This document shows positions 5,549-63,253 of a DNA stretch of 64,000 nt, piece after piece (the stretch's first letter is position 1; every line of letters starts with the position of its first letter). The DNA comes from Acidobacteriota bacterium (GTDB lineage Bacteria; Acidobacteriota; Terriglobia; 2-12-FULL-54-10). The translations under genes were made by a program, and so were the position numbers. The notes under the pieces are model-generated. The model was not told the DNA's origin. It saw only the letters and a program-made list of their open reading frames with translations, and made no database searches. The DNA is taken from NCBI GenBank assembly GCA_009691245.1, contig SHUM01000004.1, positions 9,032 to 73,031 on the forward strand. The letters are read 5' to 3'.

Positions 5549-5567
5549 CGGCAAAGTAACAGCGCCC

Positions 5568-5612
5568 GTGACAGTGCCGCGACCGTCAGCGAGCGGACCC
5601 GGTGGCCGGGCC
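5568..5612 (-). repeat. REP-like dispersed repeat copy (reverse orientation)
   Basis: rc = GGCCCGGCCACCGGGTCCGCTCGCTGACGGTCGCGGCACTGTCAC; matches the family consensus GCTGACGCGCGCGGCWCTGTCACGC. Confidence 0.7.
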
Positions 5613-9560: not shown

Positions 9561-9650
9561 GGAGGAATGGGTGAGTGGTTGAAACCGGCGGTCTTGAAAA
9601 CCGTTTGCCTCGAAAGGGGCACGGGGGTTCGAATCCCTCTTCCTCCGCCA
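9561..9650 (+). tRNA. tRNA-Ser (anticodon UGA), including 3' CCA
   Basis: Hand-folded: 7-bp acceptor GGAGGAA/TTCCTCC, anticodon loop CTTGAAA, long variable arm, T-loop GGTTCGAATCC, discriminator G, CCA. Confidence 0.9.
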
Positions 9651-13181: not shown

Positions 13182-15191
13182 CTACTCCCCGCGCTGCTCC
13201 TGGATCGCCTGCGCCCGCTTTCTCAGCGCGGTAGCCTCCTTCGTCCGCCCCAACTCCTGCAACACCGCCGCAAGGTTTTTGCATACCAGCGCAATATGAG
13301 GATGGTCAGGTGGCAGCGACTTTTCGCGGATGGCCAGCGCGCGGCGGTAGAGCGGCTCGGCTTGGCTGTACGCGCCGCGCCCGTTCAAGTAGAAGCCGGT
13401 CTGATTGAGCAGCAGCGCCGCCTCCACAAACTCAAACCCCAGGTTTTCGATCCAACGGGCGCAAGCCAAAGCCTGCGGCAGCATCCGCTCGCATCGAGAC
13501 CAATTCTGAAACTCAGGCATCGGGAAGGCTGCGTCCACGGCCCGCACGGCCCGTTCCGCATAATTCCGCCGGTCCTCCTGCGTCATCCTATCGCGAATAA
13601 CGGCTTGCGCAATCCTGTGAATGCTGTAGGCGCTGGCACCGGTGCTCCTGCTGATCAGGGAATATTTTCGGAGCGGCGCGAGCGCTTCATCCAGCAAGAG
13701 CGGGTTCTGCTGGTAGTCCGCCAGAGCCGCCCCCAGTGCGGAGCCAACCTGCGCAGCACCGCCGGTAACCAGCTCGAACGGGATGTCATCCGGCGCGAGG
13801 AAAGCGCTCACCCGCAGCAGCTCCGCGGCTGGCGGAGTCTTTTCCACTTCTCCAAAGTTTAGCTTCCAGGTGGTGGCCACTAATTCAGAATAGCCTCCGG
13901 CAACCGGACCACGATCATTCAGTAGAGCAACTCCACGATTGCGATAGGTCTTCAGGTAATCCTGGAACGTAGACTCCTTGGCCACAATGTAGGCCGCGGC
14001 CTGCTCCAATGCCAGCGGCAGATAGCCTAGCTCTTTGGCCAAATCCCGCGCGGCCTCCTGCTCCTTCTCCTGGCTTGACTGCCGCGAGGTGCGAGCCAGC
14101 AGGAAGTCCAAAGCCTCGTCTGGCTCGAAGTCTCCAAGGGAATGCGTTGTAACATTTCCCAGTGCGTCAAGAATGCCGGGGCGGGAAGTGAGCAGAATCG
14201 CGCCTTTGATTTCAATCGGAAGCAATGGCTTGATGAGTTCGGGCCAGTCCGCATTGTCAAAAATCAGGAGCCATCCGTCGTTTTCGCTTAACCAGCTCGT
14301 TACCGCATGGCGGACCACAGTCTGGTCCGAAGAATCGCTGCCGGGCAGTTCGAGCATTCGCGCGATTGTCCCGAATCCCGAATTGATGCTTTCCTCCGAG
14401 GAGGCTCGCACCCAGAGAATCGCGCGATAATCATCACGGTGCCGATAGGCGTATTCCGCCGCCGTTTGTGTCTTGCCCTTGCCGCCGAGACCTGTGATCG
14501 CCTGCTTCCTGATCCCCTTGGTGATGAAGTTTTCATGTAGGGTGGCGAGTAGTTTCTCGCGTCCTGTAAACCAATCGGTTCTTTGTTGCGGCACGATAAA
14601 GAACTTTTGGGGGACGACGAAATCTTGTTTGCGTTCTCTTGGTTGTAGATGCGGCTCCGGTCCCAGCGGGGGCTTTGGGGTGGCGTGCTTACCTTTTAGG
14701 CGGCGCAACAGGAGATCGAACCCCTCTTCTGTCGTTGGGTTGTAATGGTTAACCCCTTGAAGAACAATTGGAATGTGTTTAGCGTCATCAGCAGTGAATA
14801 CCACCGGAATGAACTTCGTGTTGCGACCTTGAGAATTGTACAATTCCTGCGTAATGATCGCGCCTTCCCAGGTTGCTCCCAGGCCTTTCCCTACTTCTTC
14901 TTTTTTCCGAAATCGCCGGAGATAAGTCTCGGTACAAATCACCAGGACAAATTCGGATGCCTCGATCTCATCCTCCATCCATGTCGGCCAGCCTTCCGGC
15001 GGGGAGTCGATATATTGATCGATCATGGCGTCAACATTGTTGTCGCGCAGCTTTTTGGCAAGGGCAAGCACTTGATCTTGGAAGGCAGTATCCCCATGTG
15101 CGTAACTGATGAATACGCGCTGTGCGGGACTGGGTTTCTCTTGGCTCAATCGCAACCTCGCATCAAACAAGCAGACAGTATCATAGCCCAC
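13182..15191 (-). CDS. SEFIR/TIR-like domain-NB-ARC (P-loop NTPase)-TPR STAND protein; candidate NLR-like antiphage immunity protein
   Basis: N-terminal VFISYAHGDTAFQDQVLALAKKLRDNNVDAMIDQY...FVLVICTETYL (SEFIR/TIR-superfamily signature). Walker A GLGGKGKTQTAAEY, Walker B LLIFDNAD, NB-ARC-like GxP region, and a C-terminal kinesin-light-chain-type TPR block. 669 aa. Confidence 0.85.
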   Translation of the reverse strand: MGYDTVCLFDARLRLSQEKPSPAQRVFISYAHGDTAFQDQVLALAKKLRDNNVDAMIDQYIDSPPEGWPTWMEDEIEASEFVLVICTETYLRRFRKKEEVGKGLGATWEGAIITQELYNSQGRNTKFIPVVFTADDAKHIPIVLQGVNHYNPTTEEGFDLLLRRLKGKHATPKPPLGPEPHLQPRERKQDFVVPQKFFIVPQQRTDWFTGREKLLATLHENFITKGIRKQAITGLGGKGKTQTAAEYAYRHRDDYRAILWVRASSEESINSGFGTIARMLELPGSDSSDQTVVRHAVTSWLSENDGWLLIFDNADWPELIKPLLPIEIKGAILLTSRPGILDALGNVTTHSLGDFEPDEALDFLLARTSRQSSQEKEQEAARDLAKELGYLPLALEQAAAYIVAKESTFQDYLKTYRNRGVALLNDRGPVAGGYSELVATTWKLNFGEVEKTPPAAELLRVSAFLAPDDIPFELVTGGAAQVGSALGAALADYQQNPLLLDEALAPLRKYSLISRSTGASAYSIHRIAQAVIRDRMTQEDRRNYAERAVRAVDAAFPMPEFQNWSRCERMLPQALACARWIENLGFEFVEAALLLNQTGFYLNGRGAYSQAEPLYRRALAIREKSLPPDHPHIALVCKNLAAVLQELGRTKEATALRKRAQAIQEQRGE

Positions 15192-15375
15192 TGCGCGGCG
15201 CAGCGCACCCGCTCGCCAATCGCTCGTAGTGGGTCAGTTCGCCGTCAGGGCACGACTTCAGTCGTGCCGAAAATGTGCCGCAAGAAAACGCTTCCTCACT
15301 GCCGTAGGCGTAAGCGCAGGCGCGCAGCGCCACAGCGCGGATCATTGCCTTTGGGATTCGCGCGGATTGTACAGT

Positions 15376-15478
15376 GGTGGCGCAGGCATTCTTGCCTGCG
15401 GGGTTTGAAGTGCTTTTATTTTGGCGGGCTGGAATGCCTGCCCTACCAAAAGACGCAGGCAGGAATGCCTGCGCCACC
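15376..15478. repeat. 103-bp element with 25-nt terminal inverted repeats (GGTGGCGCAGGCATTCTTGCCTGCG / CGCAGGCAGGAATGCCTGCGCCACC, 24/25 match) and internal AATGCCTGC repeats
   Basis: Seen directly; MITE-like or structured-RNA-like; about 185 bp upstream of the STAND start codon. Confidence 0.6.
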
Positions 15479-15969
15479 CATATGCCTGCATCACTGCTAC
15501 AAACGAAGGATGATTTCGGCGGTCGGGGGGTGAGCCATAAATTACCCTCACGGCAATTTGTCAACCACTTTGCAAATGGGAAATAGGGAGCGCGAGTGAA
15601 CAAAGCGCGACTTGCAAACCGCGAATTTTGTCAAATTGGAAAATTTGGATTCTTTGGGCAGAAAGGCGCAGGGATAATTGAAAGGAAAGTTGCTGCGGGC
15701 GCTCTGCCTGTCCCCATTCTCCGACCCCAATCCCCTGGTTTGTCAATCTGGTCAGAGTGGTCAGAACCGTGAAAATTTGCACTTTGGGCTGGGCCGACGA
15801 TTTGGTCGCGCCAGCCGCTCACTTTTAGGGTGACAAGAAGCATTGAAACGGTGGGAATCGGTGTGCTACTCTGAGGGCCATTTGCAAGCCCGGGTCTGTC
15901 TTCTGAAATGCGCTGATCATCTGGAATCCCCTGAAGGGGGCGACCTGTGGGCAGGAGGGAGCAGTCATC

Positions 15970-18120
<2,151 letters not shown>

Positions 18121-18271
18121 CGCTCGCGCAACTGACTTGTGTGGCCCGCACGGCAGTGCCGCTGCCTTGTTGTGCCAGGTGGTCGCTTCAAACGAGCGTT
18201 CCCGCATCAGGGTGTTTCACTTGCTGGTTGTCGCAATCAATGTTAACTTACACAGCGGATTGGTAGTTGTT

Positions 18272-18294
18272 CCCATCTGCGTAATCTGCGGATG
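18272..18294 (+). repeat. Copy of motif family S (CCCATCTGCGTAATCTGCGGATG)
   Basis: Seen directly; overlaps the start of the kinase remnant. Confidence 0.55.
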
Positions 18295-18660
18295 TTCCAA
18301 ACTATGGTTGGCAAGACGATCTCCCATTACCGGATCGTGGAGCTGCTGGGCGGCGGCGGGATGGGCGTCGTCTATCGGGCGGAGGACTTGACGCTCGGCC
18401 GCATGGTGGCGCTGAAGTTTCTCTCGGCGGAGTTGGCCGCGGATCGCCAGGCGCTCGAGCGTTTCCACCGCGAGGCGCGCGCGGCCTCGGCATTGAACCA
18501 TCCCAACATCTGCACCATTGAGGAGTACGAAGGCCAGCCCTTCATCGTGATGGAACTGCTCGATGGCGCGACGCTGAAGCACGCCATCGGCGGGCGAACA
18601 ACTGTACGAGTTGGGCGCGCAGGTGGCTCAACAAGTCGGTGGTGTACACAGCAGATGTTC
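18292..18660 (+). pseudogene. Ser/Thr protein kinase, N-terminal remnant (about 100 aa of kinase subdomains I-V, then frameshift and truncation)
   Basis: [26 protein letters not shown]...HPNICTI...[18 protein letters not shown]. The catalytic loop HRDLKP and the DFG/APE motifs are absent, and downstream sequence is unrelated. Confidence 0.7.
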
Positions 18661-18684
18661 TCACGAACATCTGTTATTTATTGG
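18652..18684 (+). terminator. Hairpin CAGATGTTC-TCAC-GAACATCTG followed by TTATTTATT at the kinase truncation point / island boundary
   Basis: Seen directly. Confidence 0.5.
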
Positions 18685-18763
18685 CAGCAAAAACGGTCGA
18701 ATTCTATTGATGTGAGCCGGGGGAAGGAGCGCGAGAACCGAATAGTGTAATGGGGAATTTCAG

Positions 18764-20020
18764 CTAACGAACCATGAGCTTGAAAGTGTAAGTTTGACCA
18801 TCGCCCAAAACAAGCCTGGCGTCTGACGCTGTTGGAGTTCCGGTACAGCAACTTGTATTTTGGAAGTTAACCTGATACAAGCTTACGGCTCCGGGAGAAA
18901 GTCCGGCGTAAACAATTTCCATTTCCGAACTTCCTACCAGCAAACGGGGTTTGGTCAGTAGCAGGTAAATGTCGCCAGGCGGAGCAAACTCGTTTATGGG
19001 TACAAACGGGGTGGTAGAGCCAAGGCCGGTTCCCCACAAAAGGTAATACTCGCCGCACACAAGTGGTTCACCCGGCGCAAGCAAGCGGTACTGGCTGTCC
19101 TGCACCAGGGTTCTTGCGTTTGGGTCAAAGACCTGGAATATCCCGGGGAACGAACTTGTGATTCCCAAGGAACTTGAGGTGTTAGATATCCCTTCTCGGT
19201 TTACAGTTATTCGGGTTGCGGTTCCTTCAATGTCCGGAACCAGAAAATTAACCTGGTTGGGAGAAACGAAATGGAGTGGCGCCTCTTTGTCACCAGAACT
19301 GCTAGTAACAAACACTCTCACGCCACCAAGAGTGGTGGGGAAAGGGGCGGTACTGGCGTGTTCGGTGCTGTTGGCTAGGTCACCCCACAAAGTCATCCAA
19401 GTTCCCGGTGCCAAGTTGGTTGCGGTAGCGAAACTAGCTGCATTGGTAATAGCGGTAATGTGCGGAGCGCCTACAGGAACAGGGAACACTTTGTATGTGA
19501 ATAGTCTGCCGTCGCTGACTTTCTGGACCAAGTACAGGAGCGGACCAGAAGCAACCATTCGTTGCATCTCTCCTTGCGGGGCGTCCAGGTCTGTAAGCAG
19601 GGTTTCCACAATTTGGCCAGAAAGACGGATCAAGCCTCGCACCCCGGGACGCAAAGTTGTTATGAAGTAAAGCGGTCCATTGGGGACCCCAGCAAGGCTA
19701 ATAACATCGCTAACCGTTACGTTTCCAACCCGGCCGTTGGTTACCAGCTTTTGCTCTAATGTATCCGGGTTTAGAAATTGGCTAACTTGCAGCCCACCAG
19801 AATTGGTGTAAGCCACTGTTGCTGTTTCATTATATACTGCAATGGCCGTAATATTCTGAAAGCCGGACAAAACGACTTTAGTTTCTCCCCACGTACCGTT
19901 GAACACGACACTAATGCGGAGCAGAGTACGGTCAGTTTCATTTACAACGTAGGCATATCTGGTATTGACCCCAACCAAGACTAAGCGTTTGTTTTCGCTC
20001 AATCTAATCCGGTAAATCAC
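18764..20020 (-). CDS. C-terminal part of a frameshifted secreted protein with a Solibacter-type C-terminal domain (GTG-initiated ORF in the track)
   Basis: The C-terminal 220 aa match the Solibacter-type C-terminal domain also present in the 27249 and 29126 products (PGIFQV...GEPLVCGEYYLLWGTGLG...AGLSPGAVSLYQVNFQ). No signal peptide at its own start. Local GC about 50 percent. Confidence 0.55.
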   Translation of the reverse strand: MIYRIRLSENKRLVLVGVNTRYAYVVNETDRTLLRISVVFNGTWGETKVVLSGFQNITAIAVYNETATVAYTNSGGLQVSQFLNPDTLEQKLVTNGRVGNVTVSDVISLAGVPNGPLYFITTLRPGVRGLIRLSGQIVETLLTDLDAPQGEMQRMVASGPLLYLVQKVSDGRLFTYKVFPVPVGAPHITAITNAASFATATNLAPGTWMTLWGDLANSTEHASTAPFPTTLGGVRVFVTSSSGDKEAPLHFVSPNQVNFLVPDIEGTATRITVNREGISNTSSSLGITSSFPGIFQVFDPNARTLVQDSQYRLLAPGEPLVCGEYYLLWGTGLGSTTPFVPINEFAPPGDIYLLLTKPRLLVGSSEMEIVYAGLSPGAVSLYQVNFQNTSCCTGTPTASDARLVLGDGQTYTFKLMVR

Positions 20021-20112
20021 TTCCAGAATGGGACTACTTCCGGCTGGCAGTTCAAAAATTCCTTGGTAAACATTTGTTGGGTCGTCTGTGGGTTGGTAGT
20101 AGGCTCCTAAAA

Positions 20113-20670
20113 CTATTCGACCAGAACCTTTTTTAAACCCCAGACATCCAAGAAAGTACCAACTGTCTCTGGCTTATTGCGGTAAGTTATTGTGTCGCTT
20201 GTTCCAAAGAGCCTAATAGGTGGACCAGGAAGACCGCGCCCTTTGACGTACAGGGTAGAGTTGTAAGTCGAAGAACTAGTTGGAGTGTACTTAACATAAT
20301 GTACTCCACCACTGCTCCCACAGGCTACAGCAGCCCTTGCTGATTGTGGGAAACGCCCTTGGAATGGGGCAATTAGGTAAGTGACTCCGCCTAAAGCGCT
20401 TTCATTACTCTGGTCTAAAAGTTCTGGCGTGGCAGCAATTCTGGGATCCCAGTGTTTAAGGAATAAGCCAGAATTGCTGCAAAGGCCGCCTTCGGTAAAA
20501 GGTGGTCCCGGATCATCGGCTGTGAAGGTTTCTGCCGGCAATGCAAGTAGCTGTGGTGAAAAACGGGAATCCGGAACTCCCTGCAGGGTTGTTAATTCTG
20601 CCCTGACTTTCGGAGACAGGGCTGCAACCAGTACTAACAAAAGAACCAATCCGCTAGGTTCGGATCTCAT
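20113..20670 (-). CDS. N-terminal part (signal peptide plus 160 aa) of the same frameshifted gene
   Basis: Signal peptide MRSEPSGLVLLLVLVAALSPKVRAE. The ORF terminates just after a T6/A6 tract at 20129-20134; the +1 frame continues uninterrupted into the 18764-20020 ORF. Confidence 0.55.
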   Translation of the reverse strand: MRSEPSGLVLLLVLVAALSPKVRAELTTLQGVPDSRFSPQLLALPAETFTADDPGPPFTEGGLCSNSGLFLKHWDPRIAATPELLDQSNESALGGVTYLIAPFQGRFPQSARAAVACGSSGGVHYVKYTPTSSSTYNSTLYVKGRGLPGPPIRLFGTSDTITYRNKPETVGTFLDVWGLKKVLVE

Positions 20671-20908
20671 GTAAATGATATTATCTCATGGTTAGTCAGC
20701 CGCGTTATCCTGTTGAATAGAATTATTCAAATCCATCAGGGTATGCAGGCTACTATCTGGCAGCGCCCAAATGATCAATGCATGCACGCGTCGTCATTCC
20801 CAATTCACAACGAGAGTGGAGAGCCATGGCCTTGGTCCTCGCCGGAGCGACCGCCGGAGCAAACGGTCCCGCGCAAACGCTGATTGCAGAGAAGGGCGGC
20901 CGGGAGGT

Positions 20909-20954
20909 GGGTTTTCCATAGGCCCGCTTGCTGACGCCCGCGGCACTGTCACGC
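20909..20954 (+). repeat. REP-like dispersed repeat copy (full-length form GGGTTTTCCATAGGCCCGCTTGCTGACGCCCGCGGCACTGTCACGC)
   Basis: Seen directly; overlaps the higA stop. Confidence 0.75.
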
Positions 20955-21251
20955 AGCATGGATGGCGGCGGGCTTGTAGCGGTGCACGTGAATTTGATTC
21001 TCAGTGGCGCGGTGGACGGCCAGGTCGTATGCCAACTGCATGCGCATCAGGTGGTCCATTTTGGGGCCGCAGGCCTTTTCGATGCGCAGGGCCATCTGCG
21101 GGCTCAGGTCGGTGCGCTCATTCAACAGCAGCGACAAGGCTTGGCGGCTGACTTTCAGAATGCCGGCGGCCTCCGAAACGGATAGTTCTAATGGCTGGAT
21201 AATCTGGCGTCGAATGATGCCGCCGGGATGCGGCGGATTTTTCATAGCCAT
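20949..21251 (-). CDS. higA: HigA-family antitoxin (XRE-type HTH), orphan
   Basis: MKNPPHPGGIIRRQIIQPLELSVSEAAGILKVSRQALSLLLNERTDLSPQMALRIEKA is the classic HigA/VapI antidote signature. No RelE/HigB-like ORF in either flank. Confidence 0.75.
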   Translation of the reverse strand: MAMKNPPHPGGIIRRQIIQPLELSVSEAAGILKVSRQALSLLLNERTDLSPQMALRIEKACGPKMDHLMRMQLAYDLAVHRATENQIHVHRYKPAAIHAA

Positions 21252-21278
21252 GGATTGAATGCTCCCAATCGCTGGGCG

Positions 21279-21314
21279 TGTCCGCTTGCTTACGCGCGCG
21301 GCTCTGTGGCACGG
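21279..21314 (+). repeat. REP-like dispersed repeat copy
   Basis: GTCCGCTTGCTTACGCGCGCGGCTCTGTGGCACGG; same orientation as 20909-20954, so higA is bracketed by direct copies. Confidence 0.7.
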
Positions 21315-21320
21315 CGCCGG

Positions 21321-22007
21321 TTATTCGCGACCGTCGTCGATGACGTGGCCGTCGCGCATTGTGATGATGCGGTCGCTGAAGGCGGCTACTTCCGGGTTGT
21401 GGGTGATCATCAGGATGGTCTGACCGAACTTGCCGTTCAATTCCTGGAGCATGTTCAGGACTAGTTGAGAAGTCTCGGTGTCGAGCGCGCCGGTGGGCTC
21501 GTCGGCGAGGAGAATCTTCGGCTTGTTGACCACGGCGCGGGCGATGGCCACGCGCTGCTGCTCGCCGCCGGACATCTCCAGCGGGCGATGGTTGATGCGT
21601 TGATCGATGCCCAGCAATTTGAGGATCGAGTTCAGATGATCGTTGTCTACGCCATTACCGTTTCCGGCAATATGGCCAGCCAGCGCGATGTTGTCGTAAG
21701 CGGAGAGAGTCGGCAGCAGGTTGAAGCGTTGGAAGACGAAGCCGATCTTCTTCTTGCGCATCTCGGTGCGTTGGGCTTCGCTCATTTGCGCGAGGTCGTC
21801 GCCGTCCACTGTTAGCTGCCCGCCGCTCGGCTGAGTCAGTCCGCCGATGATGTGCAGCAGGCTGGATTTTCCGCAGCCGGAGGGGCCAACGATGCTGACG
21901 AACTCGCCCTGCTCCACGCTCAAGTCCACGCCGCGTAGCGCGGGCACGTCCACCTTGCCCACGCGGTAGGTCTTGCGCAATTGTTCGGCGTGAATGATCT
22001 CAGGCAA
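21321..22007 (-). CDS. ABC transporter ATP-binding protein (MacB/LolD-like)
   Basis: Walker [13 protein letters not shown] signature [14 protein letters not shown], Walker [10 protein letters not shown]-loop. Confidence 0.9.
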
Positions 22008-22019
22008 GAGTTGTTCCTT

Positions 22020-23120
22020 TTATTCGTAGGCCAGCGCTTCGATGGCGTCCTGCTTGGCGGCGCGCATCGCCGGGTAACATGACCCAAACAGGCTGGCGAA
22101 CAGCGCGATGCCCGCGGCGCGCAGCATCCACTCACTGGTAATCACAATAGGTAGCGTGGGAAAGAATAGCCCGACCAATTGCCGCACCGCATAACTGAGT
22201 CCGATGCCGCCGATAATGCCAAACACAGTCAGCGTTGCTGTTTCACGCAGCACCAGATTGAAAACATATCCGCGCGACGCGCCCATGGCCTTCAAGATGC
22301 CGATCTCCCGTGTGCGTTCGATGATGGTGGAGTACATGGTGATGAAGATCACCAGCAGGCCGATGCAAACCGCCAGCCCGATAATCACTGAGATGAAGTT
22401 ACTCAGGCCGGGAACGTTTCCCGCCACCATGAGTGAAACGTATTCCTGCATGTCGCGCAATTGATAGTTGGGAAGCAACACCTGCATCTTGGCCAGCGCT
22501 TCCTTCACCTGCTTGGGTTGGGTGAGGCGCACGAAAAAGATGGACGCCTTGCCCGCTGATCCCATCAGGTCCTGCAATTTTTCGATCGGCAGGAAAATCC
22601 GCGCGCCCTTGCCGTGCTCCACAATTCCCGCGACGCGAAACTGCTGGTTGAGCAGTTCCAGCGTGCTGCCGACTTTTAACGATCGCGAATCGGCGAAGAT
22701 GTCGTCCACCAGCACATCGTCGGGCTGCTCGAATCCGCGGCCATCGAGGAAGCGAAAGCCGCCGGAGACGGCGTCGAAGCTGGGCACATCGATTCCGTAG
22801 ATCAGAGTGATGCCGCCCGAAGTGCTGGCCTGCACCAGCACGGGGGCAACGGCGCGGACTTCGGGAATTTCAGCGAGCTTTGCGGCGATGGTCACCGGCA
22901 TCGGCGAACCGCTGAATCCGAGGAACATGGAAGTGGTCTGCGGTTGGACCATGATTTCCGCGCCCACGCCGGCGGTGCGGCGCGCGGACTCCTGCATCAC
23001 GCCTTGCGACAGGCCCACCACCATGATAATGAGCACCACTTCAAGGGCCACGGCCGCGACAGAGAGCAGCGTGCGAATGGGGCGGTTGACGAGATTGGCG
23101 AGTATGAGGCGGTTAATCAA
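22020..23120 (-). CDS. ABC transporter permease, FtsX/MacB family
   Basis: N-terminal TM, large periplasmic domain, C-terminal 3-TM FtsX-like region; 13-bp gap to the ATPase gene. Confidence 0.8.
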   Translation of the reverse strand: MINRLILANLVNRPIRTLLSVAAVALEVVLIIMVVGLSQGVMQESARRTAGVGAEIMVQPQTTSMFLGFSGSPMPVTIAAKLAEIPEVRAVAPVLVQASTSGGITLIYGIDVPSFDAVSGGFRFLDGRGFEQPDDVLVDDIFADSRSLKVGSTLELLNQQFRVAGIVEHGKGARIFLPIEKLQDLMGSAGKASIFFVRLTQPKQVKEALAKMQVLLPNYQLRDMQEYVSLMVAGNVPGLSNFISVIIGLAVCIGLLVIFITMYSTIIERTREIGILKAMGASRGYVFNLVLRETATLTVFGIIGGIGLSYAVRQLVGLFFPTLPIVITSEWMLRAAGIALFASLFGSCYPAMRAAKQDAIEALAYE

Positions 23121-27248: not shown

Positions 27249-28895
27249 ATGAAATCAATCACACGCTGGTTTATGCTTTTCGTTTTGTGCGCGATTCCGG
27301 CATCACTGCTGCCCGTGCCGCTGGCGGCCGATACACTCGAGACCGTCTATTTCCGCGGCAACATGAGCCCGGCCAATGAAGTGCCGCCGGTTGCCAATGA
27401 ATCGGCCGCAGCAACCGGCCGGGCTACCATCGCTTTTCATCTCCGTCGCAACGACGCCGGAGCAATTATTTCCGGCGTGGTGGATTTCGACGTGGATTAC
27501 AGCTTTCCCGTGCCCGTTACGGTGCGCGGCTGGCACATCCACGAGGGCGCGGCGGGCGTCAACGGCCCGGCGCGCCTCAACACCCCATTGTCCGCCGCCA
27601 ACAGCGTGGTGGATGCCGACGGAGTCGGAACATTGAGCTACAAAGTGGAAGCCAATAACCAAAATAATCTGGATGCCCTGCGTGTTGTTCTGGCTGATCC
27701 CGCCGGGGCCTACATGAATGTGCACACCTCTGATAACACCGGCGGAGCCACTCGCGGTCAGTTGCAATCGACGACGGTCTCCGACTTTCAATTCACCATG
27801 AGCCCAGCCAATGAAGTCCCGCCCATCGCCGACTTGAACGCCTCGGCCCTCGCCAAGGCCAGCTTGTTCACCACGCGCAATGCGGCTGGTGAGGTAACTT
27901 CCGGCACAGTGATCTTCGATGCCAATTACACCTTCCCCAGCAGCGTAACGTTTCGTGGCTTTCACATTCACGATGGAGCGGCGGGCATCAACGGCCCTGT
28001 GCGCATTGACAGCGGCTTGAGCGCCACCAACACCGTAACCGATGCCGATGGAGTAGGCAATCTGCTGTTCCGTATCAACGTGGGTGGTGATAATGCTCTT
28101 GGCCTGGCCACTTTGCGCAGCGCCGTCGACGCACCGGCCAATCACTACCTCAATTTACATACCACCGTGAACACCGGCGGCGCGATCCGCTCTCAGCTAG
28201 GTGGCAAGGTTCCGGCTCCGACACTCTCGTCCAGTGGAGTTGTTAGCGCCACCTTCGCTAGCGGCGTCAATGTAGGCTCGGCGGGATCACTGATCTCCAT
28301 CTTCGGGTCAAACCTCTCTCGCAACGTGGCCACGGCCGGTACTGTCAATGGACGGCTTCCCGCCACACTGGCGGGAACCAGTGTGAGTATTGGCGGCGTA
28401 TCCGTTGGAATGATCTACGCCAGCCCCTCTCAGTTGAATGTTCAGGTGCCGTTTGAGGTGCCCGCAGGAAACTTCTTCGTAACTGTCAATGCTCCCGGAG
28501 GGTCCTCCACCACGCAGATGGTGACCTTCTCCGCTTATGCTCCGGGTATCTTCGCCGTGGTGAAGAACTCCGACTTTTCCCTGGTATCCGCGGCCAACCC
28601 AGTACGGGCAGGCGATGCGGTAGCGGTATTCGCAACTGGACTGGGTGCGGGAACTCCTGCGGTAGCCAGCGGACAGTTGGCGCCAGCCAGCCCTCTCTCT
28701 TCCACGGTGGCCACGCCAACCGCGACTATCGGCGGTGTCGCCGCGCAGGTGGCGGCCTCATTGCTGGCTCCTGGATTCGCGGGCGTTTATCAAGTAAATG
28801 TCGTTGTCCCGGGAGGGGCGCCGACCGGCAGTCAGGCGCTACGCCTAACCATCGGCGGCGTGCAATCCAACACAGTGAACATCAACGTCCAGTAG
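27249..28895 (+). CDS. Secreted protein with two CHRD domains plus a Solibacter-type C-terminal domain
   Basis: Signal peptide. Two repeats of SPANEVPP...GxHIHxGAAGxNGP (CHRD signature). C-terminal PGIFAVV...ATGLGAGTP...GFAGVYQVNVVVP. Confidence 0.7.
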   Translation: MKSITRWFMLFVLCAIPASLLPVPLAADTLETVYFRGNMSPANEVPPVANESAAATGRATIAFHLRRNDAGAIISGVVDFDVDYSFPVPVTVRGWHIHEGAAGVNGPARLNTPLSAANSVVDADGVGTLSYKVEANNQNNLDALRVVLADPAGAYMNVHTSDNTGGATRGQLQSTTVSDFQFTMSPANEVPPIADLNASALAKASLFTTRNAAGEVTSGTVIFDANYTFPSSVTFRGFHIHDGAAGINGPVRIDSGLSATNTVTDADGVGNLLFRINVGGDNALGLATLRSAVDAPANHYLNLHTTVNTGGAIRSQLGGKVPAPTLSSSGVVSATFASGVNVGSAGSLISIFGSNLSRNVATAGTVNGRLPATLAGTSVSIGGVSVGMIYASPSQLNVQVPFEVPAGNFFVTVNAPGGSSTTQMVTFSAYAPGIFAVVKNSDFSLVSAANPVRAGDAVAVFATGLGAGTPAVASGQLAPASPLSSTVATPTATIGGVAAQVAASLLAPGFAGVYQVNVVVPGGAPTGSQALRLTIGGVQSNTVNINVQ

Positions 28896-28919
28896 TTTCC
28901 ATTTACCTCAATCCCGTTT

Positions 28920-28950
28920 GCCCGGCTGATGAACTCCTATTCAGCCGGGC
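28920..28950 (+). terminator. Hairpin GCCCGGCTGA-11nt-TCAGCCGGGC after the 28895 stop (terminator-like, no strong T-run)
   Basis: Seen directly. Confidence 0.4.
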
Positions 28951-29021
28951 CGACGAGGCAAAAATGGCACTGCCCCTCGTCTTGATCAAGGTTTACAGTT
29001 CCCCCACTTGCACTGGGGTCA

Positions 29022-29098
29022 TGTTAACAATTATTTACCGCCCTGACATAGAAATTAAGGTCTGGAACGGGTTAACATTCAAAGAGCGATAGTTAACA
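29022..29098. promoter_or_regulatory. Three GTTAAC palindromic hexamers (29023, 29071, 29092; the first is TGTTAACA) within 105 bp upstream of the 29126 gene (candidate operator array)
   Basis: Seen directly; AT-rich local context. Confidence 0.35.
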
Positions 29099-29125
29099 CT
29101 AGACACGTGAGGATGGGATATTGCC

Positions 29126-30478
29126 ATGGGCTACAATCAAACGAATCATAACTCTGCCATCAATCGCAACAGCACCTCGTCAATTTGGAAAGTCGCGCTG
29201 CTGGCCTTGTCACTTCCGATCTTGGTGTACGCGTTTTCCCCCGCTCCCCCATCCGAACGTACGGGAGGATTTGGTGAATCCACATGCATCGGGTGCCATT
29301 TGGGGACTGCATTGAACGGAGGTGCCGGACGAGTAACCATTACGGGCGCTCCGACCGCCTACGTTAGCGGCACGGTCTATCCCATCACGGTGCGCGTGGA
29401 GGATCCCGGCGCCGACCGGAGGCGATGGGGATTTGAAATGAGTGCCCGCACTCAGGCTGGCGCGCAAGCCGGGACGCTCTCTCCGACCAACAACCAAACT
29501 GCTTTGGTGCCTAGCTTCAATGGAGTCCAGTACATTGCCCACACCGGCCCCGGCACTCGCGCGGGCACGGCAGCCGGAGTAAACTTTACTTTCAATTGGA
29601 CTGCTCCCAACACCTCGGCAGGCTCTGTAGTCTTCCATGCCACAGGTAACGCCGCAAACAACAGCGGGAGTGAAAATGGCGACCGCATCTACTCGACCTC
29701 AGCGACTGTGCCTGCGCAGGTCGCCGGTCCCGTGCCTACGGTTGCCGACGGAGCGACGGTCAACAACGGCAGCTTTGCGCAGCACCCTGCGCCGCTGGGG
29801 CCGGGGTCGATCGCGGCCATCTTCGGTGCTAACTTGAATGATGGGACCGCGCTTTGCTCGTCTAGTTTTGGCGGCGATGGCAAGCTGATCACCTCGTTGT
29901 GTGGAGCCAGCGTTACGGTGAACAACATCGCCGCGCCCATCTTCTACGCCACGCCTGGGCAATTGGGCATCCAGATACCTTTCGAGCTGGCGGGTTCGGC
30001 CACAGCAAACGTCACGGTAACGGTCGCGGGCCAGTCCAGCACGCCGCGCACAGTCTTCATTGATACCGCGGCACCAGGTATTTTTTCGCTGAGTCAAACC
30101 GGCAGCGGACCGGGAGCGATTCTGATCGCCAACAGCAATATTCTCGCCGTGGCCACGGGAAGCGTCCCGGGTCGGACCACGAGACCCGCGCGACGCGGTG
30201 AAATCGTAACCATCTTCTTGACCGGACTGGGAGTGACTTCTCCGGCTCTGGCCACCGGTTCGCCTTCCACTGGAAATCCTACCGCGACGCCCGCCACGGT
30301 TACCATTGATGCACTGCCGGCGACGGTGCTTTTTTCCGGAACCGCGCCCGGCTTCGTTGGACTGAACCAGATCAATGTAACCGTGCCCACCGCCGCGCGC
30401 ATCGCCAATGATGTACCGGTAGTGGTTACGCTTGGAACGAAAATCAGCAACACGGTAACCATGGCGGTGAGCCAGTAA
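29126..30478 (+). CDS. Secreted protein: N-terminal CxxCH (putative heme c) beta-sandwich module plus a Solibacter-type C-terminal domain
   Basis: Signal/TM, then GFGESTCIGCHLG; C-terminal PGIFSL...LTGLGVTSP...GFVGLNQINVTVP paralogous to the 27249 and 18764 C-termini. Confidence 0.6.
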   Translation: MGYNQTNHNSAINRNSTSSIWKVALLALSLPILVYAFSPAPPSERTGGFGESTCIGCHLGTALNGGAGRVTITGAPTAYVSGTVYPITVRVEDPGADRRRWGFEMSARTQAGAQAGTLSPTNNQTALVPSFNGVQYIAHTGPGTRAGTAAGVNFTFNWTAPNTSAGSVVFHATGNAANNSGSENGDRIYSTSATVPAQVAGPVPTVADGATVNNGSFAQHPAPLGPGSIAAIFGANLNDGTALCSSSFGGDGKLITSLCGASVTVNNIAAPIFYATPGQLGIQIPFELAGSATANVTVTVAGQSSTPRTVFIDTAAPGIFSLSQTGSGPGAILIANSNILAVATGSVPGRTTRPARRGEIVTIFLTGLGVTSPALATGSPSTGNPTATPATVTIDALPATVLFSGTAPGFVGLNQINVTVPTAARIANDVPVVVTLGTKISNTVTMAVSQ

Positions 30479-57940: not shown

Positions 57941-57975
57941 TCCGTGGATAGGAACCGCCCTCTTGCAACCGGAGC

Positions 57976-58023
57976 GGGTTTTTCCATTGGCCCGCTTGCT
58001 CACGCGCGCGGCACCGTCACGCG
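57976..58023 (+). repeat. REP-like dispersed repeat copy (full-length form)
   Basis: GGGTTTTTCCATTGGCCCGCTTGCTCACGCGCGCGGCACCGTCACGCG. Confidence 0.75.
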
Positions 58024-61704: not shown

Positions 61705-63060
61705 ATGCTGCAACGCATCGCCGCACGCGCGCTCGCTTTCTCGCAACATTACATGCCGGCGCCCTACCTGCTCTCGCTGCTGCTGACGTTTGTCTCGGCG
61801 GCGCTGGCCTTCGCCATCACGCACACGGCGGTCGAGAAGATTCTCTCGTCCTGGTACGGCGGCATCTGGGAGATTCTCGCCTTCACCACGCAGATGGCGC
61901 TGATCCTGCTGTGCGGCCACGCGCTGGTCGATGCGCCGCTGGTGCGCCGCGCGCTTGACCGCATCAGCGCGATCCCGCGCACGGCGGTCCACGCCGGGAT
62001 GCTGGTGTTTCTGGTGGGCTGGGCCACGGCGCTATTCAACTGGGGATTCTCGCTGGTGGTTTCCGGCGTGCTGGTGCGCGAGATTCCGCGCCGCATGACC
62101 GGCGTGTCGAAAGGCTATCTCGCCGCAGCGGGCTACACGGGATGGGCCGTGTGGGCCTCGGGAATTTCCAGTTCCATCGCGCTGGTTACGGCCACGCCCG
62201 GCTCGCCCATGAACATTATTGAGCGCATGTCGGGCGCGACCATTCCGCTGTCAGAGACGCTGCTGCCGCTCTATAACGTAGTCCCCGTGCTGGGCATGGC
62301 CATACTCATGCCGCTACTGTTCGCTAAAATTCATCCCGCATCCGAAACAGTGCCGCGCGCGTCAGCAAGCGGGCCGCTGGAACACCCTGCTCCAGACGCG
62401 CCAGTTGGCCACGATGCTTCCGGTCACCGAATCCCTAAGACCATCGCAGAGCGCATTGAGCAGAGCCGTCTGGTTACAATCATTCTCGTCGGCATGGCCG
62501 CGCTGTTCATTGTCCAGCGCATCGCGGCGGGCGCGTTCAATCTGGACCTGAACATGATGATCTTTCTGTTGCTCGCGCTGGGATGGGCGCTGCACGGCAC
62601 CCCTATCAGTTACATGCAGGCGTTCCACGGCGGCGCAAAGGCAGCCGGGCCGATCCTGCTCGCCTATCCGCTGTACGGCGGCATCCTCGGGCTGATCCGC
62701 GACACCGGTCTGGCCGATTGGTTCGCGCAGCAGTTTGTCGCATTTTCCACCAGTCATACCCTGCCCTTCTGGTCCTACGTCAGTTCCAACGTCATCACGC
62801 TGTTCGTGCCGTCGGGCGGCGGACACTGGGCCGTGCAGGGTCCGGTGATGGTGAAGGCCGCGCTGGAACTCGACGCTTCCCTCGCCAAGACCGCCATGGC
62901 CGTGGCCTTCGGCGAGCAGACCGGCAACCTCTTCCAACCCTTCTGGGCGCTGCCCATCGTCAGCATCGGCGGCGTCAGCGTGCGCGAAATGATGGGCTAC
63001 TGCATGGTGGCCTTCTTCATCGCCTTCCCCCTGTTCGGCATCGCCCTGCTGGTGTTCTAG
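61705..63060 (+). CDS. Short-chain fatty acid transporter family (AtoE-like) integral membrane protein
   Basis: 12-14 TM helices; sequence pattern typical of the AtoE family (my recollection). Confidence 0.65.
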   Translation: MLQRIAARALAFSQHYMPAPYLLSLLLTFVSAALAFAITHTAVEKILSSWYGGIWEILAFTTQMALILLCGHALVDAPLVRRALDRISAIPRTAVHAGMLVFLVGWATALFNWGFSLVVSGVLVREIPRRMTGVSKGYLAAAGYTGWAVWASGISSSIALVTATPGSPMNIIERMSGATIPLSETLLPLYNVVPVLGMAILMPLLFAKIHPASETVPRASASGPLEHPAPDAPVGHDASGHRIPKTIAERIEQSRLVTIILVGMAALFIVQRIAAGAFNLDLNMMIFLLLALGWALHGTPISYMQAFHGGAKAAGPILLAYPLYGGILGLIRDTGLADWFAQQFVAFSTSHTLPFWSYVSSNVITLFVPSGGGHWAVQGPVMVKAALELDASLAKTAMAVAFGEQTGNLFQPFWALPIVSIGGVSVREMMGYCMVAFFIAFPLFGIALLVF

Positions 63061-63117
63061 CGTGGCGCGGCGCGTGACAGTGCCGCGCGCGTGCGCAAGC
63101 AGGCCTATGGAATAACC
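63061..63117 (-). repeat. REP-like dispersed repeat copy (reverse orientation)
   Basis: rc = GGTTATTCCATAGGCCTGCTTGCGCACGCGCGCGGCACTGTCACGCGCCGCGCC. Confidence 0.75.
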
Positions 63118-63192
63118 ACGTCCCGGTTACGCCGTCTTTTCCCAATCCAGAGCACAACGCCATCGTGAAACCCAACCATCTCCAAACGCGGC

Positions 63193-63253
63193 GTTGTGTT
63201 CCATCGGCCCGCTCGCTGACGCGCGCGGCACTGTCACGCGGCTCTGTCACGCG
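63193..63253 (+). repeat. REP-like dispersed repeat copy with a tandem-duplicated 3' module (GGCACTGTCACGCGGCTCTGTCACGCG); inverted partner of 63061-63117
   Basis: Seen directly. Confidence 0.75.

Follow-up and report, generated by a model that had tools for sequence, protein, structure and literature searches.

The stretch of DNA analysed here (the window; 64,000 nucleotides of an Acidobacteriota genome, contig SHUM01000004.1) contains a low-GC islet between the convergent 3′ ends of a gene for an EF-G paralogue and of an ABC-transporter operon. The islet is occupied by one gene, which is split between two reading frames and is referred to below as the islet gene. A Ser/Thr protein kinase stub lies at its left border, and copies of a repeat resembling repetitive extragenic palindromic (REP) elements and a lone higA antitoxin gene lie to its right; no mobility genes accompany it. 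In a preliminary description the locus was taken for a decayed, horizontally acquired cargo region that had truncated a resident kinase gene. The features of the locus are the following (GC3 is the GC content at third codon positions).

15970-18120, plus strand: EF-G paralogue gene, the conserved left anchor (Pfam domains; product 83% identical to P0287 and P0288)
18304-18597, plus strand: Ser/Thr kinase N-lobe stub, subdomains I-V (Pkinase model positions 1-92 of 263; GC 0.65 and GC3 0.87, host-like)
18598-18712, plus strand: putative decayed +1-frame continuation of the kinase, weak (colinear local alignment to the kinase from L071)
18622-18705, plus strand, in the frame of the kinase open reading frame (ORF): weak match to an IS66 accessory TnpA-like protein (E 0.0077, 16.7 bits against a cut-off of 28)
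18628-20811, no strand: low-GC islet, ~2.2 kb (GC 0.491 inside against 0.610 outside, log-likelihood ratio 42.9)
18650-18684, plus strand: hairpin of 11 pairs, 4 of them G-C (stem 18650-18675), then a T-rich tail with ATTTATT (consensus scan; centroid stem, z -2.16)
18764-20173, minus strand: 3′ frame of the islet gene, 469 open codons plus stop (HMMER matches to P0003 and P0004 over query residues 17-467)
20113-20670, minus strand: 5′ frame of the islet gene, 185 codons (aligns with the N-termini of P0003 and P0004)
20128-20134, minus strand: frameshift site A AAA AAG, in phase with the upstream frame (codon phasing)
20671-20811, minus strand: AT-rich region upstream of the islet gene, inside the islet (GC 0.40-0.52 in a 50-nt profile)
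20900-20957, plus strand: REP-like copy overlapping the higA stop codon (86-89% identical copies elsewhere)
20949-21251, minus strand: higA-family antitoxin gene (TIGR02607, E 4.6e-23, 80.9 bits against a cut-off of 47.7)
21274-21315, plus strand: second, partial REP-like copy in direct orientation (direct repeat, 88% identical over 26 nt)
21321-22007, minus strand: ABC ATPase gene, 228 aa, the right anchor (Pfam ABC_tran, E 1.4e-37)

The borders of the islet were placed by a two-change-point maximum-likelihood fit of GC content over 16-23 kb. The fit agrees with the fall to ~50 percent GC first described over ~18700-20750, while the ~65 percent given for the flanks was too high, since they average ~0.61 (0.60 for the window as a whole). 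Windowed profiles showed that composition is not uniform: the segment 18751-20750 has a GC content of 0.493 against a mean of 0.597 (standard deviation 0.026) for all 2-kb windows of the 64 kb and a tetranucleotide distance of 0.045 against 0.0188 (standard deviation 0.0041), and it ranks first in the 64 kb by both measures. GC3 is 0.41 and 0.49 in the two ORFs of the islet; among the neighbours it is 0.81 in the EF-G gene, 0.74 in higA and 0.77-0.81 in the ABC genes, and it is 0.66-0.67 in two paralogues of the islet gene found elsewhere in the window. Since GC3 lies so far below that of neighbours and paralogues alike, the low GC of the islet is a shift at synonymous sites and not a matter of amino-acid content. 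Milder GC dips are seen at 14-16 kb and 34-36 kb of the window.

HMMER, run exhaustively against 1.84 billion cluster representatives, retrieved two metagenomic proteins without a name, P0003 (612 aa) and P0004 (610 aa), that are 40% and 37% identical, respectively, to the product of the 3′ ORF. These alignments begin at residues 160-166 of the two homologues, whose first 160 residues match the 185-aa ORF instead (E 9e-13 for P0003 and 1e-6 for P0004). Because both homologues align colinearly over the two minus-strand ORFs, these represent a single 635-codon gene interrupted by a frameshift. In the multiple alignment, frame 1 stops at DVWGL and frame 3 picks up at GAYYQPTDDPT; the two frames overlap over 20116-20173, a stretch that contains TTA AAA AAG GTT with its run of six A (TTA AAA AAG at 20128-20136). 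With one A added back to the run to make seven, or with a slip of -1 on A AAA AAG, both frames fuse exactly into 635 aa. The 5′ frame opens with a signal-peptide-like N-terminus, MRSEPSGLVLLLVLVAALSPKVRA (20599-20670), read directly from the sequence, and similar N-termini are present in P0003 and P0004; the stop codon of the 3′ frame is at 18764-18766. The earlier claim of a frameshifted gene for a secreted protein on the opposite strand is thus upheld. A scan of the upstream region 20671-20811 with the sigma-70 consensus gave no match.

The C-terminal part of the product belongs to TIGR03437 (Soli_cterm), a family of no known function on which our literature search found no papers. The domain was detected in the 3′ frame with 132.6 bits (cut-off 29.05; E 1.8e-38; model positions 1-196 of 225) at ~18767-19450 and reaches the stop codon, so that the protein carries Soli_cterm at its C-terminus behind a putative signal peptide; its last 30 residues align with the C-termini of the homologues. 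As the preliminary description had proposed, this C-terminus is paralogous to those of two other products encoded in the window, both on the plus strand, which combine Soli_cterm (E about 1e-54 in each) with a CHRD domain (27249-28895) or a choice-of-anchor V domain (29126-30478). These paralogues are only 27-29% identical to the islet gene, which is therefore not a recent internal copy. The two adjacent genes at 27249-30478 thus differ in their N-terminal modules, which fits Soli_cterm being a common C-terminal module placed on varied secreted heads.

The N-terminal module of the islet gene was shared only by P0003, P0004 and a fragment, P0006, likewise a nameless metagenomic protein, among the 1.84 billion representatives. 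The best non-self match to the product was 40% identical, and a word-index search gave only the protein itself and one weak match. PHROGs and PADLOC had no match to the ORFs of the islet, metagenome scans found neither the N-terminal module of the family nor the exact frameshift site, and exact-protein look-ups gave no record for these ORFs or for the ABC ATPase. An AlphaFold model of P0003 is all-beta, though its confidence is low (mean pLDDT 57.8); Foldseek matched it to extracellular proteins of the propeller plus immunoglobulin-like type, with TM scores of 0.2-0.26. The model suggests, in rough outline only, the architecture of the islet product: an all-beta N-terminal region, probably a propeller, ahead of Soli_cterm as an immunoglobulin-like domain. 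By analogy with its matches, such a protein would be extracellular, with a binding or an enzymatic role.

The frameshift is most simply read as a one-base deletion in a run of seven A, possibly leaky. The heptamer A AAA AAG is the classical slippery sequence of dnaX. It is no evidence of design here, as any one-base loss from TTA AAA AAA GGT creates it. The fold downstream is not significant (z -1.69), with a stem that begins at the last base of the heptamer and leaves no spacer, and P0003 and P0004 are read in a single frame without the A run. To call the gene decayed was an overstatement: its lesion is a single one-base frameshift, and the 635 codons are otherwise open.

At the islet's left border, the ORF of the kinase (18292-18750) aligns with the Pfam Pkinase model at positions 1-92 of 263 only, so that the remnant is indeed limited to subdomains I-V. 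The stub is 67-70% identical to residues 1-101 of two full-length kinases, one from L042 (896 aa) and one from L071 (889 aa). Alignment of these intact relatives to the whole window returned nothing beyond 18304-18597, and the 3′ half of the kinase gene is absent from the window, as had been stated. As read from their sequences, both relatives combine a kinase domain and a membrane segment with a long C-terminal part rich in repeats, in which “SPDG” motifs recur; the repeats appear to resemble those of the PD40/TolB type. The stub lacks the complete catalytic domain, with HRD catalytic loop and DFG motif, of a functional Hanks-type Ser/Thr kinase. Its best matches are 73-81% identical; since no near-identical paralogue (or orthologue) was found, the stub is not a recent partial duplication.

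Whether the kinase frame shifts beyond the stub, as had been claimed, is less clear. A +1-frame continuation aligns with the L071 kinase with a score of 34 (shuffled sequences 21.2 ± 3.9, p about 0.007), and kinase decay may possibly reach about 18712; against this, the continuation gave no alignment with the L042 kinase and did not lengthen the Pfam match in a repaired-frame construct. The hairpin reported at the end of the stub is present at 18650-18675 and is followed by ATTTATT, with a fold z-score of only -2.2. It is terminator-like for plus-strand transcripts only, there being no U tail on the minus strand. The IS66 TnpA-like match at this border of the islet is probably due to chance.

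Short kinase N-terminal proteins in the databases were considered as signs of a conserved truncation point and rejected, for they are products of genes fragmented by frameshifts on contigs named contig_NNNN, which from their naming we take to be long-read assemblies (L084 and L085). On each, the N-terminal fragment (164-168 aa) of an orthologous kinase is followed by further ORFs: on L084 (5001-7627) by one of 699 aa with Pkinase and faint PD40 matches, on L085 (5001-7529) by several short ones without a Pfam match. Both splits look like frameshift errors, which swell the count of short kinase proteins in databases.

At the right flank, the REP-like copy and the orphan higA noted previously were both confirmed. 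The copy at 20900-20957 recurs at least five times in the window, with further copies at 5567-5599, 57971-58022, 62347-62393, 63072-63126 and 63196-63242; with the partial copy beside higA, the family has seven members in 64 kb and a conserved core of ~40 nt, GGCCCGCTTGCTGACGCGCGCGGCACTGTCACGC. Three or more copies cluster at 62-63 kb. Members of this family occur to the left and to the right of the islet, which argues for a single genome as the origin of both flanks. A RAYT transposase was not encountered in the window, in which no search was aimed at one. Two direct REP-like copies bracket higA, and no higB was found: only 69 bp, with a REP-like copy in them, separate the higA start from the ABC gene and leave no room for it, and nearby short ORFs match no family.

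The position of the islet was compared with the corresponding loci of relatives. On the contig of the closest of them (that of P0287), a convergent ABC_tran gene of 228 aa comes 61 bp after the EF-G gene, and a second minus-strand gene comes 8 nt after that; the region 21321-23120 of the window has the same ABC gene length, orientation and gene order. A second relative (L087, encoding P0288) shows 78.7% DNA homology over window positions 15861-18115, which stops ~5 nt short of where the EF-G ORF ends, and continues with a GC-rich hairpin and an unrelated convergent gene. This perfect hairpin (L087 2517-2589), GAGGGCCCCGCC...GGCGGGGCCCTC, fills the 73-bp gap between the convergent genes and has no counterpart in the window. 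In a third (L086, EF-G 76% identical), prs, L25, pth, S6, S18, L9 and dnaB lie downstream. None of the relatives examined has a kinase gene downstream of EF-G. An attempt to define the ancestral state from 80 species-representative genomes was abandoned: these are too distant, the best EF-G match being 68% identical with no neighbours shared with the window. The comparison of synteny thus reveals a variable site and leaves the supposed resident kinase without a counterpart at EF-G in the relatives examined. Since only 61 bp separate EF-G from an ABC gene in the closest relative, the entire block 18121-21320 (3.2 kb; kinase stub, islet, REP-higA-REP) looks lineage-specific, and it is most economically regarded as occupying a variable site between convergent genes, in which case truncation of the kinase stub may have preceded or accompanied its arrival.

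We consider it probable that the islet 18628-20811 is one horizontally acquired gene that came with its own upstream region and encodes a product secreted by way of a Sec-type signal peptide. The islet is foreign by synonymous-site composition and holds a single frameshifted gene, so that the horizontal acquisition proposed at the outset is the best available reading. We infer the following origin, donor, order of events and loss of function. The gene would have come from a donor of much lower GC, probably an unsampled acidobacterium, Soli_cterm being typical of Acidobacteria. It would have landed in the variable spot between the convergent 3′ ends of the EF-G paralogue gene and the ABC-transporter operon by illegitimate or REP-associated recombination rather than as a self-mobile element. 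A one-base deletion in the A7 run would then have split it into the 185-aa and 469-codon frames, and full-length protein would be made at a low level at best.

Several points weigh against this account. The case for horizontal origin is a compositional one, as neither a donor nor a close homologue was found in any searched collection. The route of entry has left no trace that we could find: no integrase or transposase was detected (Pfam, PHROG), no significant terminal repeat, and no att-like repeat of the 3′ end of tRNA-Ser(TGA) anywhere in the window, and the view of the locus as the cargo region of a mobile element is not established. The ABC gene on the closest relative's contig is likely orthologous to that of the window, judging from length, orientation and order, and an insertion in the window is not distinguishable from a deletion in that contig. 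The source is a metagenome-assembled genome (MAG) from Lake Baikal, and no other assembly covers the frameshift site. An independently deposited ENA contig (ERZ1305449, 25,311 bp) reproduces the left junction: it contains EF-G, an identical kinase stub of 148 aa and, counted from the left, the initial 366 nt of the islet gene, and it ends inside the islet at about 19129. This end may mean strain heterogeneity or a drop in coverage.

The MAG source and the end of this contig inside the islet would suit an assembly chimera, in which a low-GC 2.2-kb piece from another Lake Baikal organism was joined in by the assembler, as would the singleton nature of the islet gene, which has no relatives in the lineage. 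Two misjoins would be needed, however, and the flanks share the REP-like family and their composition. Moreover, the left junction is found in the ENA contig and the right one in a Logan contig 100% identical to 20463-21562, although the reads behind these assemblies are possibly shared. The Logan contig stems from run SRR8561390, a metagenome sampled in winter at 1250 m in Lake Baikal (PMC7678222). A double chimera is unlikely, and we hold an assembly artefact to be very improbable as the source of the islet. It is extremely improbable that the gene is native and owes its low GC, without any transfer, to weak expression or AT-biased decay. Such an origin would agree with Soli_cterm being typical of Acidobacteria, with the two paralogues 7-10 kb away and with the milder GC dips in the window; yet GC3 is 30-40 points below that of all neighbours and about 20 below that of the paralogues, the borders of the islet are sharp and take in its non-coding ends, and decay could not have shifted GC so far with 635 codons still open.

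The scenario of the preliminary description was that a resident kinase gene of ~890 codons stood downstream of EF-G and had its 3′ 2.4 kb replaced in place by incoming DNA. The host-like GC3 of the stub, its N-lobe motifs, which read as intact, the weak colinear continuation to the islet edge at about 18712 and the distance of the stub from any paralogue, which speaks against a recent partial copy, all point that way. On the other hand, no relative has a kinase after EF-G, and in the closest one EF-G and the ABC ATPase gene are 61 bp apart. Truncation in place is thus not established, and we regard replacement as possible though rather doubtful. It is unlikely that the islet gene is intact and functional, the interruption being a consensus error in the A run, a minority variant, or a place of -1 ribosomal slippage (as in dnaX) or transcriptional slippage. 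The lesion is single, a stop-free run of 469 codons at 49% GC would have a chance of about 1e-10, and the heptamer is exactly in phase for a -1 shift to the fusion that the homologues support; but the same heptamer follows from any one-base loss at this site, its downstream stem lacks both a spacer and significance, and the homologues have no A run. Errors at runs of six or seven A are uncommon in the reads, which we presume to be Illumina, and this too counts against an intact gene.

We return to the reading of the islet as a horizontally acquired gene. A bolder version, which we regard as a long shot, is that rare genes joining a propeller to Soli_cterm may move between distant genomes as bare gene-sized units without mobility machinery; A AAA AAG might then additionally be a working recoding signal. 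A compositional island of gene size is seen at two of the three family loci with context: in the window (GC 0.49 in a host of 0.61) and in L083 (1-8151, Logan SRR6488694), where the P0004 gene (93-1925; GC 0.60) adjoins 6 kb of GC about 0.37. The low-GC part of L083 encodes four paralogous membrane-anchored proteins without a Pfam match, and the 92 nt upstream of the P0004 gene are also AT-rich. Either L083 shows a compositional island in mirror image, or its contig is chimeric. No flanking motifs shared among the three loci were found.

Further searches for the means of integration were also negative. A candidate terminal inverted repeat, 18763-18778 with 20685-20700, was dismissed as chance (score 22 against 16.6 ± 2.2 for shuffled sequences, maximum 27), and the tRNA-Ser gene was rejected as an att site, there being no repeat of it in the window. 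The islet DNA matched nothing in plasmid and phage collections, and an Rfam scan gave no match. Two features elsewhere in the window belong to this survey.

9561-9650, plus strand: tRNA-Ser(TGA), the single tRNA gene of the window, situated 9 kb upstream of the islet
13182-15191, minus strand: gene for a 669-aa SEFIR/TIR, NB-ARC and TPR protein (PADLOC bSEFIR defence model, E 1.4e-50)

The 5′ (TIR/SEFIR) part of the latter gene, together with the region upstream of it (~14600-15800, GC 0.49-0.55), ranks second in the window as a compositional outlier.

The locus is of little importance beyond annotation. In the NCBI record of the EF-G, kinase-stub and islet proteins (a MAG contig of 98,515 bp), EXQ56_01895 and EXQ56_01900 are hypothetical proteins; more fitting descriptions would be the stub of a kinase pseudogene and the 3′ half of a gene with a frameshift. 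The analysis also marks the site downstream of the EF-G paralogue as variable in an under-sampled acidobacterial lineage of Lake Baikal and documents a very rare N-terminal module joined to Soli_cterm. Compositional islets in MAGs need checks of their junctions before they are read as gene transfer.

Among known systems, the frameshift site resembles dnaX-type programmed -1 frameshifting in its identical in-phase heptamer of the form X XXY YYZ and in that the -1 product would be the full-length protein supported by homologues. Unlike dnaX, it has no significant stimulatory structure at the usual spacing and is not conserved in the homologues. The repeats are like REP elements in being multiple, similar, short extragenic copies, intergenic and at gene ends, and it is on copy number and position that we call them REP-like. 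The higA gene, which matches an equivalog model and lacks the adjacent HigB toxin gene of a HigBA module, is comparable to orphan type II antitoxins (HigA without HigB), and its REP-like surroundings to REP-associated rearrangement sites. The islet gene is like other TIGR03437 members in its C-terminal domain, far above the cut-off, and in belonging to a family whose N-terminal module varies between members; it stands apart in that its N-terminal ~400 aa are a very rare module.

Of the marks of a classical genomic island or integrative element, the islet has atypical composition and lacks an integrase or transposase, direct repeats and a tRNA target. Its nearest counterparts are the small islets and candidate islands of below-average GC in Candidatus Solibacter usitatus Ellin6076 (PMC3174227), which share with it an aberrant GC content and biased oligonucleotide usage, cargo that is hypothetical or secreted, traces of degeneration and many divergent paralogues, Ser/Thr kinases included. 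The candidate islands of Ellin6076 carry tRNA genes, integrases or other mobile-element genes, whereas the islet described here is a single gene without them. It would be an ordinary islet of a well-known kind, made up of a single gene gained by horizontal transfer and set, beside two other gene remnants, in an intergenic spot that varies.

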